Positions 13,628 through 51,300 of a stretch of 64,000 nucleotides of DNA are shown one piece after another. The notes beneath the pieces are model-generated. The model did not search any database. It was given only the letters and a program-made list of their open reading frames with translations, and had not been told where the DNA came from. The DNA comes from Octopus vulgaris (lineage: Eukaryota): contig OX597834.1 of NCBI GenBank assembly GCA_951406725.2, forward strand, positions 43,028,001-43,092,000, written 5' to 3'. The position numbers and the translations under genes are program-made. Every line of letters begins with the position of its first letter. Positions within the stretch are counted from its first letter, which is position 1.

Positions 13628-13813
13628 ATAGCCACTACACACATTTTTTGCTCTCCTTGTTTCTTCCTTGTTTTTTTCTGTGTCCCTTTCTGCGGAAGAC
13701 CGTAGGTTTGAAACGTAAAAGACTTTTTTCTATTCCTGAGCGTTATACTAATACATCTGTTTGTTTTGTACACCACCTGTCTTCGTCTTTTGTTTTTTTC
13801 GTAAACTCTCCCT
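13628..13813 (+). mobile_element. Short PLE-like non-autonomous repeat, family D, with degenerate hammerhead fold (13684-13722)
   Basis: Homologous to 31714-31897 and 44005-44156; contains CTTT CTGCGGA AGACCGTAGGTTT GAAA CGTA AAAG. Confidence 0.7.
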
Positions 13814-16800
13814 ACATATATATATATATATATATATATAATACTTACATACATACATATGCATGTATGTGCGTATATAGAGCGAGAAAGATAGAGATAG
13901 AGAGGGTGCGAAAGATTATGTATAAATGAGATGCGACCATCCTTTTGTACATCTGTAGGTGACAATAATACAAACTTCTGTGACTTGAAAGAAGGAGATC
14001 AAACAGAAAGGATGGGGCTCGAACGAATCGGTAAAACAATTACAAATACCTCAATATTGGCAATAAATGTCTTAGTCTCAACTGAGACGGAAACAGATGA
14101 AGATGGTGAGGCAACTGTAAGCGAAAAACAGTGATGCAATTTCGGAGGTGAGAGGGACATGAAATGATCAAGTAGCCAACGGAAAAACGGGAAGAAAGAA
14201 AAAATTAGGGAAGAAAGGCTATAAGGAACGGGAGTGCCGGCTGCAGGACCAACAAAGTGGGAGGACGGAGAGAGAGATAGTGAGATAGAAAGTGTAAGGA
14301 AAATAGAGGTACAAAGTGATAGAGTAACTCATAGTCATTAACACACACACACACATACACAGACTGAGTCTTACAATCGCACACAGAAAAACAAGTTTAT
14401 TTAATTTTCTATACACGTTTCTTATTATCCTTATGATGATTATATTTAAGAATATGGATTCAAAGGAAAAATTCACACTTCTACATAAACACACACAAAC
14501 AGTCAAACATACACGAAAAACACTTATGTTCTCAAACCCCACTGTTAAGCATACATACATACATGCATATATACAAATATATGCAGTCACACATGTGGGT
14601 ATATGTATGTAAATATACACATGAAATATGCATATATAATATATATTCCTATATTACAAATTATACACTAATTTTATCTTTGAAAAGTATTTATATTATT
14701 TTTATGCACTAATGGAAAATTTCTGAAACCGGCTTATACCATTACATACAGAATTAAAAATACTTAATCAAGAATAAAGACATGCATATACATATATATA
14801 TATATATATATATATATATATATATATATATATATATATACACTTGCATAAATGCGCGCGAGCGCTTGCGTAATTCTGTATATCTGTGTGTGTGTGTATA
14901 TATATATATATATATATATATATATATACATACATACATACATACATACATATATACATTCATACATGGGTGTGTGTGCGTTCGTGCATTTATAGTATAT
15001 ACACGCAAGAAACATTAGTATAATGAATATAAACGTATACATACATGTATGTATATATATATGTAGACGCATACAAATATTATATTGTTTTTTTTTTATA
15101 TGTGAGTGTGTGAAATTGTGCGTACGTGTGTACGTGTATGGTGTTCAGATATTTACATTTAAGTGTATAAATACAGATATACACACATAGGAGTTTCTAC
15201 GCATTCATAATCTAGTTTCTTTAGAGACATATTTCAAATTAAACACTATTACGAAACATTCACTGTATATGCTGTTGCTTTTCATATTCACATTGAAAAT
15301 ATACATCATTAAAATATATTCAAAACATACCATTTCTACATATTCAAAATAAATAGAATTCACTATATATTAATAAAAAAATAAATATTATAATCAGTAA
15401 CAAAATAACAACATTATTATATATGAAAATACATATACCAACTTCTCGGTTATTCAAAATATTCGCCATTACTACATTTATCAATAAATGGAAACTTTAC
15501 TGGATATTCAAAATATGTCGCATTACGAATACACATATATATTTTGTCGTTGTTTCCATTCTTAGTTTAGGCTCCATGAAAAAAAAAACAAAAAAAAAAA
15601 AACAAAAGAAAAACAAGACCAAAAAAATTAGCAAAAAGACGCCATTTTAGCGGCGGCTCTACTTTGGATGTGAAAAAGAGGGGTGCAATAATTATTCTTG
15701 ACATAAATCAAATTTTACATCTTTGAGTAGTTGTTTGAAGTCGACGATAACATTAGCAAGGATTCGATAACGATTGCGAAAAATGATCTTGCCAAAGAGA
15801 AGTTTTAAACACATTACATTACGCACAATATACACACACAATTTAAGCATATACATACATATACATATACATATATATATATATATACATATATATATAC
15901 ATATATATAAACATATATATATATGTATATATATATATATATATATATATACATATATACATATATATATATATATGTATATATATATATATATATATAT
16001 AGACACATATATATAAATATATAATATATATATACATTTGTATATATATATATATATCTGTATGTGTGCTCTCAGGGAGTGTGGGAGAGAGGAACAAAAT
16101 CTATAAGTGAGGGGGAAATTACATATAAATGTATTCATACATTTCTAACATTTCTAATATATATATATATATATATATATATATATATATATATATATAT
16201 GCATGTATTTATGATTATATGCTTGTGTGCGTGAGTACGTGTGTATGGATGTGTGCGGAGTCGGAAATAGAGAAAGGGAGATGAAGATAGAGGGACGGAG
16301 AGAGAAAGAGAGTGAGGGAGAGAGAGAGTGGAGTGATAATAAATAGAGTGAGAGGCTAAATAAATAATGGAAGTGCAAATGTTTGTTTGATTGAAAGCTT
16401 TAAACTAAATGGCCCACTAATGGGATTTACCAATTACTAAAAGCAATCTCCTTCCCCCATCCCACCCACCCTCCTTGCAAATTAAACCATTAGCCCTTGC
16501 TGAAAGCCAAAACTAAGGGATGAAGAGTTAACTGCTTTTTTGTGTCTATTTTGATTTTCGTGCAGGAATATTTAAGGAATATATATAGTTTTGTCGTTAT
16601 CCAAAATATTTAGTTCTAGAATGGAAAAAGATGAAATAAATAAATATAGATATAAATAAATAAATATATAAAAAATTAACGTTTATTTTCATCTCTTTTT
16701 CACGTTCGTATGATTTATATTCATCAGAATATTAATTCCTGTAAATGAATCACATTTTTTTGTGTGTGTGTTTTGTTTGTTGTTTCTTATGTTATGTAGG

Positions 16801-17329
16801 CTAAATGGAATGGTTCACTCGAAATTCTATACAGTACAAGAGAAGGAAATGGAACTGCGATCATGTGAGGATGACTAATTGAAACATTAAATAGTTGTCA
16901 AATGCATGATATATGGTGATGGATTGTACGATGGAATCAGCAAAATGGTTTACTTTGAAAAAGAAATGACGATTTCTGATGTTTCGCATTGTTTTTGCAA
17001 TCAGCTCTTTACATTTCGCCCAGAGATATTGCATTTTTTTTTTCAAATACGATTAATAATGTCATGGTACATATTTTGAGGTTTTTTTATTTCTACAAAC
17101 ACACCCAGTAGTAAGACAGTCTTATCAAATGAGGATCGGCGGTTCAATCCATTTATCGGCACTTTGCTGAGTTTGAGAAGAAAAGGGCCCACAAACTCCA
17201 AATATCTCACTCTTTTGATGCAATGGATGCAATAACCGAAAGAGAAAATATTTAGTAAATTATGAGTTGATTTAGGGGAGGAGACAGGCATCATCTAGAT
17301 TATTCCGGCAATATTTATGTAACTATAAA

Positions 17330-17450
17330 TGGCGACGAGCTCACAGAATCGTTAACGGATCGGTAAAAATGTTTCTCGACATTTCTTCTGACATTCACTT
17401 TAGTACTTTCACCTCAGATTTACGTGGTTTTGATTACATTGGGGTCATCT
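17330..17450 (+). mobile_element. SINE group C, old fragment
   Basis: GGCGACGAGCTCACAGAATCGTTAAC resembles the group C head. Other decayed copies at 17925-18060(-) and 24985-25135(-). Confidence 0.55.
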
Positions 17451-49588: not shown

Positions 49589-50789
49589 TATTCCTTCATG
49601 ATCGTTCGCCGATCCTTCGACGATCCATAACATAGAGGGAACACATCTGTATGCAATTTACTAAGTTACTATATTTTATAAACGGAGAACGGGCTATGAA
49701 CACAAAATACCATGAATATTACGCACCGTACCCAGGGTACAGGACATCAAGTATCTACCAGAACATCAAGTATCAGGGTATCAAGTATATACCAGAAATA
49801 TCGAATCCCCAAAGAGACAAAATATTTGCAACGAAATTTTGCACCATATTTATTTATTTTCATCAAACCCTTCCGAGATGTTTTCTTCCGCACATAAGAT
49901 TAAAAAAAAAAAATTTGAGAAGGAAGGTGTAATTGAATTATACTCCCACCCGCAAATTAACTTTGCCTAGTTGTGTCTCGAAGCGCCTAAAAGTAATAAG
50001 AGACATGTTTAGATTTTAATATCCGATATCTGATCCTTTAATGAAGGTGAATCACAGATCTGGAATTCCTTTCTTTTCTTTTGTTCATTAAAAAAAAAAA
50101 TGGATTAATTGCTGCTGGCATCATTGTTGATTGAATTGATATTGTGTTTATAAGAATGACAAAGCACCGCTCGTTCACCCTTCTTAAAAATCATCATCAT
50201 CATCATCATCATCATCATCATCATCAATAATCATCATCATCATCATCATCATCATCATCATCATCATCATCATCATCATCATCACCATCCTCTTCTTCTT
50301 CTTCTTCTTCCCCCCTCCTCCTCCTCCTCCTCCTCCTTCTTCACATGCAAGTCAGTCACCAAAATATTGTTGGTAATGTTGCAGTGACAATACAGAGAAA
50401 GAGAGAGAGAGAGAGAGAGAGAGAGAGAGGTAGAGAGGGATAGATTGACTGATAGTTGAATAGAAACATATATAAAATATTGGACATTCTATGTATGTTA
50501 CGTTATCATTGTTATTACTAACATTATTATTTCTACTTTACTACTACTACTACTACTACTACTACTACTACTACTACTACTAGTGCTGCTGCTGCTGTTG
50601 TTGTTCACTCTTTTTATTCGTTTGTTTTATTATGCAAAACTACGTGCGTCCCCATTGTTTTATTTTTTCTATTCAATTTTTAGAAAACACTGAAGCTTGT
50701 CTTTGAAAATTCCGGGGTGGATTGCAGCTTATTTTGTGCCCATTCCTGAATATATTTATATAGAAATATATATTTCCCCTTTCTAACGG

Positions 50790-50960
50790 AACTGCTGCCG
50801 TTGAGCGACCGCTCCTGCTCTGAAAATAGCACGTGACTTGCCTTGGCCAATAACAGCCCATTTTCCCGCAGCCATCTTGGACTTTCTTTATATCTCCATT
50901 CGGCAATCTAGGCCTGAAAAAGACGACCTCCTGTTAGGGGACTGCGACGCTTTAAATCGT
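50790..50960. promoter_or_regulatory. Candidate promoter/enhancer module (E-box, CCAAT, YY1-like)
   Basis: Relatively GC-rich unique island with CACGTGAC (50830-50837), CCAAT (50847-50851), GCCCATTTT and GCAGCCATCTTG (about 50868-50879) within 50 bp. Confidence 0.4.
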
Positions 50961-51011
50961 AGGAATCAAATCTGTTATACATATATATATATATATATAT
51001 ATATATATATA

Positions 51012-51300
51012 TACTTTATTAAAAAGCAGCAAAAACATTACAAAAACTGTTACTCAGAATTTCACGCTTCCGTTCGTCGGACAGTTTTGTTTAGAATGGA
51101 GCAAGATAAAGTTATATGCAGAAATGCGATTACTTTGACTGATACACATTTGAAAATGGTTTTGTTTCATTGGTCCTTTCAACTAACGGTCTTTTCAATA
51201 ACCGGTTGCATGAAATAACAAACTGCGGTTTATTACTCTACCTCTGGTATTCGAGTACTATTTTAGCCACCTTGTTTCGCATTTATGTTCTTACTCTGGT
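51012..51300 (-). mobile_element. Short PLE-like repeat, family F, with hammerhead fold
   Basis: Discrete block bounded by (TA)n on both sides; contains the fold at 51041-51090. Confidence 0.6.
51041..51090 (-). ncRNA. Type-I hammerhead-like motif with CCGACGA core
   Basis: AAAACUGU CCGACGA ACG(GAAG)CGU GAAA UUC U GAG UA ACAGUUUU: 8-bp stem I, 3-bp stem II, near-palindromic stem III, GUA site. Confidence 0.65.

Follow-up and report, generated by a model that had tools for sequence, protein, structure and literature searches.

The locus considered here is a 64,000-nt stretch of the Octopus vulgaris genome (NCBI GenBank assembly GCA_951406725.2, contig OX597834.1, positions 43,028,001 to 43,092,000 of the forward strand), which we refer to as the window and in whose own coordinates positions are given below. 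The window is microsatellite-rich, with a base composition of 34% GC, and it carries six short motifs shaped like hammerhead ribozymes. All six were singled out in an earlier reading of the same DNA (hereafter the original prediction), and we verified each of them at the coordinates, on the strand and with the catalytic core that had been predicted. Window repeats were grouped by masked self-BLAST (unmasked repeat finding was dominated by microsatellites), which together with family comparison sorted the six motifs into four repeat families: A (27161, minus strand), B (13684, plus strand; 31805 and 44066, minus strand), C (23463, minus strand) and D (51041, minus strand). We read the six loci as the hammerhead-bearing pseudo-long-terminal-repeat (pLTR) ends of four autonomous Penelope-like elements (PLEs), likely inserted by the elements' own reverse transcriptase (RT) and endonuclease without a need for ribozyme cleavage, and we put the probability of this reading at roughly 85%.

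The family A copy (27117..27245, minus strand) is a pLTR remnant of a Penelope/Poseidon-type PLE, a 91% match to the natural copy L254, without the tRNA-derived head found in other copies of its family. Its minimal hammerhead (27161..27206, minus strand; CUGAUGA core, GUU site) has a single stem-II mismatch that is common to other copies. The remnant also carries the likely first codons of the PLE open reading frame (ORF), in a frame that extends into the ORF N-terminus in the decayed copy L401, which has two stops in the frame that the two copies share. Head-to-head with this remnant lies a seventh hammerhead-type copy (27272..27445, plus strand), an inverted A partner with a decayed hammerhead and a 34-nt PLE tail at its far end (compare L031). 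Family B is represented by three solo pLTRs of a Neptune-like PLE: the copy at 13629..13814 (plus strand) has a CUGCGGA core and a broken stem II in its hammerhead (13684-13722); that at 31715..31895 (minus strand) shows the recurrent B variant CUGUCGA and has lost G10.1 (hammerhead 31805-31842); and that at 44027..44157 (minus strand), which is shortened at its 3' end, has the family-majority core CUGUAGA and has lost U16.1 (hammerhead 44066-44103). Family C contributes one solo pLTR, also of a Neptune-like PLE (23362..23569, minus strand), whose hammerhead (23463-23497) has a CUGACGA core and a G at position 17. The family D copy (51009..51232, minus strand) is the 5'-truncated 3' end of a Hydra-like PLE; its hammerhead (51041-51090) combines a CCGACGA core (U4C) with an 8-bp stem I, a near-palindromic helix-III arm and small loop and stem changes relative to the family majority. 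Abutting the 5' end of this D copy is an inverted family D 3' tail (51231..51300, plus strand; 90% match to the tail of L100), a signature of PLE insertion.

Considered by itself, the window gives only a weak hammerhead signal, because every one of its six copies deviates from its family majority: a loose descriptor yields 3 matches, equal to the maximum obtained in shuffled sequence (mean 0.8), a stricter descriptor yields 0, and an Rfam scan of the window has no hammerhead among the first 150 of 396 matches listed. The equality with the shuffle maximum speaks for the view that AT-rich repeat DNA has produced the motifs by chance. However, when a relaxed descriptor is applied to 800 kb of grid-sampled genome, 16 matches are obtained, against 0–1 in each of 10 shuffles, more than chance would give. 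In addition, core and stems are conserved within families while the stems differ between them, which refutes the chance explanation at the family level; its probability is close to nil.

The abundance of these families was assessed in an unselected sample of 80 grid-sampled 10-kb stretches from contigs 1-23, which holds 49 hammerhead-bearing copies: 6 of A, 1 of its older sister family A', 16 of B, 14 C-like, 11 D-like and 1 of a further family, F. This corresponds to one hammerhead per 16 kb. Extrapolated from the sampled stretches to the 2.8-Gb genome, the total would be roughly 170,000, and the presence of seven in this window is therefore unremarkable. We estimate tens of thousands of copies apiece for families A to D, for which first-look genome searches returned 2149 (A), 1301 (B), 2523 (C) and 1694 (D) candidates. 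The majority of copies in A, B and C are short, at about 200-300 nt.

Ten family representatives show that the type-I architecture is kept at the family level, with pairing in both stem I and stem II, stem sequences specific to each family and a self-complementary helix-III arm. The difference in stem sequences between families with pairing retained, noted in the original prediction, is thus confirmed; in stem I, B is distinguished from C and E by a compensatory C-G/G-C swap. E is a C-related family (L013, L143, L302, L331, L365, L371) with a U4C core and a GUU site that is commoner than C proper in the unselected sample. Families A, B, C and E share an extra base after A9, a G10.1-C11.1 pair and a four-base palindrome, while the helix-III arms of D and F are longer, their self-duplex energies being -7.9 kcal/mol (D) and -12.4 kcal/mol (F). 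The CUGANGA plus GAAA core is present in A, A', C and F and is departed from in the B and D majorities. At position 6, family B has U in 42/49 copies and C in the other 7/49, with A in none (0/49); the unselected B copies retain U6, and position 7 is variable. Position 4 of family D is C in 29/35 copies, the remainder being suggestive of CpG decay. The predicted variant cores are therefore a family-level property in B and D, but the CUGCGGA core of the copy at 13684 recurs nowhere else among the B copies (1/49). The variant-core families retain C3, G5, G8 and A9, and the A6 and U4 changes both fall in what we take to be the uridine turn. Activity is low for A6C and reduced but viable for U4C (Perreault et al., PMC3088659). 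The octopus hammerheads are predicted to be slow and dimer- or protein-assisted, with a uridine turn weakened by A6U in B and by U4C in D and E. We note in passing a second D subfamily (L326, L301, L344, L363), in which GCAA replaces GGAA in the stem-II loop and A replaces U at the helix-III centre, and a hammerhead family G, seen as an inverted pair near 5100-5750 of L297 (G000:C1:100000001-100010000) with a CUGAGGA core and a long loop II.

The identity of the parent elements comes from the longer copies, which in every one of the families A to D continue upstream into a PLE endonuclease ORF; the original prediction was right to take the motifs for minimal, dimer-type type-I hammerheads tied to PLEs. 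GIY-YIG or PLE-endonuclease motifs lie on the same strand, about 1 kb or more upstream, in 4/20 long B, 2/20 C and 4/20 D loci; the D endonuclease was assigned by motif and by a single homologue found by search, the unnamed protein P0001. For family A, RT and endonuclease relics lead directly into the repeat at locus L227, and a search with the end of the A ORF returned 2256 candidates. The parent matches Pfam RVT_1 at E 1.2e-9, its GIY-YIG-type end being recognised by motif only, and its pLTR and tail continue into the ORF start, as a partial tandem, in L401 and L377, giving a unit of about 2.7 kb with an ORF of 2.4 kb. By the clade motifs of Craig et al., A, which has no linker Zn-finger, is Penelope/Poseidon-like; B and C, which have a CX4CxxC linker motif, are Neptune-like; and D and F are Hydra-like, with motifs that are partly decayed. 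An assignment of D and F to Neptune was dropped, since the clade motifs point to Hydra-like elements.

Of the two PLE coding relics suggested in the original prediction, that at 4760-5439 is indeed one, but it belongs to a fifth family, F, with a hammerhead of its own, and not to a parent of A to D. The relic (4770..5441, minus strand) comprises the endonuclease C-terminus and 3' untranslated region (UTR) of a Hydra-like PLE and stops short of its own pLTR hammerhead. In tblastn searches, relatives of F (374 candidates) are similar to the D endonuclease, with E values as low as 3e-16, and at their ends they carry a CUGAUGA hammerhead whose stem II is long; this hammerhead is missing from the window copy. 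For the second suggested relic, at 25840-27650, we found no PLE coding similarity; a decayed coding-like stretch within it (25880-26420, minus strand), unmatched among the fetched loci, is presumably not PLE-derived, and its motifs resemble a LINE (long interspersed nuclear element) fragment.

Several observations count against the PLE parentage that we propose. The Pfam matches of B and C (GIY-YIG at E 3e-4 to 0.04 for both; RVT_1 at E 0.014 for a longer B copy) fall under the gathering cut-offs, and the endonuclease pieces of D, F and A have no GIY-YIG match in Pfam at all. A pairwise alignment found no match between the window F relic and the D protein, and the clade labels of A to F are based on motifs, not on trees. 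The single direct pLTR-to-ORF copy found for A, L401, begins downstream of the head, and no full-length A copy beginning at the head was present among 30 loci. Finally, the loci were picked by similarity search, a choice that is biased against very short copies.

To describe where copies end, we count positions from C3, which puts the cut site at about +27 to +36. No copies end at the cut site; ends lie tens of bases upstream of it and about 40-100 nt downstream. In family B, 15/30 of the 5' ends fall at -69 to -66, with 4 beyond and 11 shorter, and 15/16 B copies in the unselected sample begin at or after -68. Family C has a similar edge at -86 to -83 (8/25, with 2 beyond, one of them the reference itself, and 15 shorter), while the 5' ends of family D are scattered from -77 to -1000. 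The 3' ends lie near +125 in B and at about +67 or +135 in D, where they are bimodal; B, C and D copies terminate in (TA)n, and the D tail is about 68 nt long. Several short B copies (L008, L013, L014, L020, L027) have an initiator-like TCAGT start where long copies read CTAGT. The pyrimidine tract upstream of this start resembles a splice acceptor. Inverted neighbours occur at 20/30 A, 4/25 D, 1/25 C and 0/30 B loci, and same-orientation neighbours at 1/30 A, 6/30 B, 4/25 C and 0/25 D loci, tandem arrays being rare; in no family A locus is the tail present at both ends. The inverted truncated copy and the one-ended tail seen in A and D are marks of PLE insertion. PLE ends are also found nested or adjoining, as with A within an F pLTR (L213), B next to a D tail (L108) and E next to B (L013).

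Family A has a further feature that the original prediction did not include and that the window's own A copy lacks: a tRNA-derived head. The order of parts in this family is ORF stop, about 30 nt, a tRNA-length segment (the head), (AAT)n, the likely start codon, the hammerhead and the tail, and the head follows the ORF stop in 29/30 ORF-end copies. The majority base at each column of the head agrees with the A box and B box of RNA polymerase III (Pol III) promoters, the consensus used being in agreement with PMC10886601. Both boxes stand at tRNA spacing in 8/30 A copies, compared with 0/9000 shuffles, and all of the heads tested against tRNA genes (15/15, these being the ones of 30 with an intact anchor) outscore every one of 20 shuffles against 35 tRNA sequences of the same genome. 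A relaxed ARAGORN run called 5/30 heads, against 0.6 in shuffles, and all 3 weak matches of the head in a search of phage sequences (E 0.06-3) fall on annotated tRNA genes. The same ORF-head join is shared by the diverged family A', with a B box in 9/18 copies and an A-box-like string in 4/7. The head also coincides with a 5' edge. Among 31 head-bearing units from 30 core-selected loci, the 5' end falls at -13 to +1 of the head in 12, within the head in 17 and beyond it on the upstream side in 2; at least 55 nt of head was required for a unit to be counted, which left out L042 although it does reach the ORF. In the unselected sample, 4/8 units begin at -8 to +3. Non-inverted copies, too, begin at the head, and 0/6 A pLTR copies in the unselected sample show the ORF end within 330 nt upstream. 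A reading of A as a free-standing short interspersed nuclear element (SINE) was abandoned because the autonomous parent was found: the head belongs to an autonomous PLE, and the tail is a PLE tail.

If the head were to act as a Pol III promoter, runs of TTTT would matter as terminators. All 18/18 A units (those of 30 whose 3' anchor was found) and 24/25 A' units are free of TTTT, while all B, C and D units contain it. The majority sequence of the 2.4-kb A ORF has 0 TTTT, against 4.3 expected (P 0.0105; 0.011 by an approximate codon-order shuffle). In comparison, 58 TTTT runs are present in 16 control ORF copies, where 50 would be expected, and no significant depletion is seen in the majority sequences of B, D and F. 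Since the 5' edge of family A is a tRNA-derived segment with A and B boxes, Pol III would probably make its short template RNAs, a role for the head to which we lean with modest confidence; that Pol III transcribes the whole of element A is a more tentative suggestion, which we hold to be rather doubtful.

We propose that reverse transcription would begin internally, downstream of the hammerhead, and proceed toward the RNA 5' end, as in the Poseidon element of the anole. In A, B and C the RNA probably starts within the pLTR, which would give the short copies their hard 5' edge; each such copy would then represent cDNA synthesis from the internal start as far as the 5' end of the RNA. Copies of D are truncated at random 5' positions. 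In family A, Pol III would probably make at least the short template RNAs, and possibly the whole 2.7-kb unit.

The original prediction had instead taken the families for separate mini-retroelements processed by their ribozymes, that is, for retrozyme-like cassettes: independent non-coding units that are excised by the hammerhead, circularised and reinserted by PLE enzymes. The shared 5' edge of the short non-coding A, B and C units fits this idea, as do the preservation of hammerhead stems across families and the derivation of animal retrozymes from PLE pLTRs (preprint 10.64898/2026.07.22.740005). However, copies end away from the cut site, D shows plain 5' truncation, same-orientation neighbours are few, and tandem arrays with a hammerhead in two or more consecutive units, which define retrozymes, do not characterise A to D. 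B was amplified although A6 was never present in it, and mutation of the hammerhead leaves insertion of anole Poseidon in vitro unaffected (PMC11167929). Every family runs into a PLE endonuclease ORF, and the families are therefore pLTR remnants of autonomous PLEs, not retrozymes; an origin as excised and circularised cassettes appears quite improbable. A second account is compatible with PLE origin and equally free of cleavage: solo pLTRs could themselves serve as source genes, mobilised in trans, so that A, B and C would each have a SINE-like non-autonomous sub-lineage. The hard 5' edges, the TCAGT start confined to several short B copies, the A head as a complete internal promoter, and the lack of an ORF end within 330 nt upstream of any of the six unselected A pLTR copies can all be cited for it. 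On the other hand, an internal RT start on the 5' pLTR of a full-length RNA gives the same edge (PMC11167929), no diagnostic subfamily restricted to short copies has been established, and ORF-bearing A copies are common. We consider such secondary amplification a serious contender, although its odds remain short of even.

For the head itself, the competing explanation is that a SINE or tRNA once inserted into the UTR and survives there as a fossil that does not act as a promoter; 5' ends would then accumulate through RT stalling or fold-back at a near-palindrome, and the TTTT deficit would be due to chance. Many inversion junctions do lie in or at the head, and its cloverleaf is decayed. The points that weigh against a promoter role fall on the same side: a near-palindrome at the start of the head might favour fold-back; B and C show hard 5' edges without any tRNA head; the deficit is a single test at P of about 0.01, and six single A copies contain 0-3 TTTT each against 4-5 expected; the best tRNA matches of the heads are divided among Ser, Arg, Cys and Ala, with no single donor isotype; neither Rfam nor standard ARAGORN calls the head a tRNA; and just 1/4 of the A' heads tested outscore their shuffles. 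Yet the family majority fits the Pol III consensus at both boxes, the ORF-head join recurs in the diverged A', non-inverted copies likewise begin at the head, and TTTT is missing from nearly all A and A' units but present in all those of B, C and D. A promoterless fossil is, in our view, less likely than not. The fullest version of the Pol III reading would make A an autonomous coding retrotransposon that captured a tRNA promoter, is transcribed by Pol III end to end (about 2.7 kb), has purged its ORF of terminators, and through that one promoter gives rise to SINE-like short pLTR copies in the tens of thousands, alongside B at about 50,000 copies with an A6U core; we offer it as a speculative possibility, against which the odds lie.

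If this were true, the division by which autonomous elements use Pol II and SINEs use Pol III (PMC10886601, PMC5786205) would no longer hold for a Poseidon element that has a tRNA promoter and no terminators in its ORF; the translation of uncapped RNA would become a question, and a SINE would arise inside its own motor element. The role of PLE hammerheads is an open question (PMC8557442, PMC11167929). In this regard the canonical, A6U and U4C sister families, each with tens of thousands of copies and with stems and C3, G5, G8 and A9 fixed, would provide a natural series on whether cleavage or fold is what matters.

Other repeats in the surroundings include two copies of another tRNA-like SINE (5454-5624 and 26680-26849, 77% alike), one of which lies directly upstream of the F relic, and two very abundant SINE-like families without hammerheads (19 intervals within 7272-59624 and 6 within 9023-57937). 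Judging by motifs in the raw translation, the stretch at about 34050-35300 (minus strand) is presumably a broken Gypsy-like pol relic, and motifs likewise lead us to take about 48500-48950 (plus strand) for a broken mariner-like transposase relic. Outside the window, at L261 (about 593-5072, plus strand), the sequence immediately upstream of an A element is a Tx1-like LINE that is well preserved and retains long open frames.

The hammerheads described here belong to a known type. PLE minimal hammerheads are of type I, with a palindromic 15.2-16.2, an extra base between 9 and 10.1 and a G10.1-C11.1 pair (Cervera and de la Pena 2014, PMC4209133), and the metazoan pLTR hammerheads of that study share with ours the lack of a stable helix III, the many families per genome, and a predominance of solo copies from truncated PLEs with some opposite-strand pairs. 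Since minimal hammerheads in solo pLTRs have already been described, we class B, C and D as additional representatives of this established type, with variant cores. In the main text of that paper, U3-A8 is the core change named, whereas A6U (B) and U4C (D, E) are family-wide here; its supplementary alignments may list such variants. The main text of a recent octopus repeat annotation (PMC13282606) does not mention hammerheads or ribozymes, and the available portions of PMC6962438, PMC6685494 and PMC5786205 contain nothing closer. With endonuclease-bearing PLEs (Craig et al. 2021, PMC8557442) the octopus elements share RT and C-terminal endonuclease, a hammerhead pLTR, an inverted 5'-truncated copy, a tail at one end and (TA)n targets; the tails given there are 30-40 nt, compared with about 68 nt in D, and a tRNA-derived pLTR segment like that of A does not appear in the available portion of that text. 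Retrozymes of the animal non-LTR kind (PMC7229834; 10.64898/2026.07.22.740005) are likewise short type-I hammerhead units related to PLE pLTRs, but they are tandem repeats with the hammerhead in consecutive units and a circular RNA, whereas A to D are found singly or as inverted copies, and run on into an ORF.

A close counterpart of A is PAc, the Poseidon of Anolis carolinensis (Frangieh et al. 2024, PMC11167929), which belongs to the same clade (A by motif). In PAc, two internal sites on either side of the tail serve as start points for reverse transcription, hammerhead mutants do not alter insertion, and cleavage requires the protein; as in the octopus families, insertion ends do not match the cut site. 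In PAc and A alike, the hammerhead overlaps the ORF start and the tail is situated within the first part of the ORF; A differs in having its likely start codon upstream of the entire hammerhead and a 5'UTR made up of the tRNA-like head and (AAT)n. An internal promoter has been described for the Penelope of D. virilis (PMC2377424), situated in the pLTR (PMC8557442). Our literature search, which covered published text and left Repbase, Dfam, SINEBase and supplements outside its scope, found no report of an autonomous PLE headed by a tRNA or other Pol III promoter; autonomous LTR partners have been argued to need Pol II, Pol III being weakly processive (PMC10886601). Pol III promoters from small-RNA genes within retroelement repeats, the counterpart of the putative one in A, are known from the SINE-like hammerhead repeats of Schistosoma (PMC6765202) and from the TRIMp3 elements Cassandra, Helenus and Ajax (PMC10886601). 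The schistosome repeats also carry a hammerhead, but both they and TRIMp3 are non-autonomous, whereas the head of A is found in an ORF-bearing, autonomous PLE.

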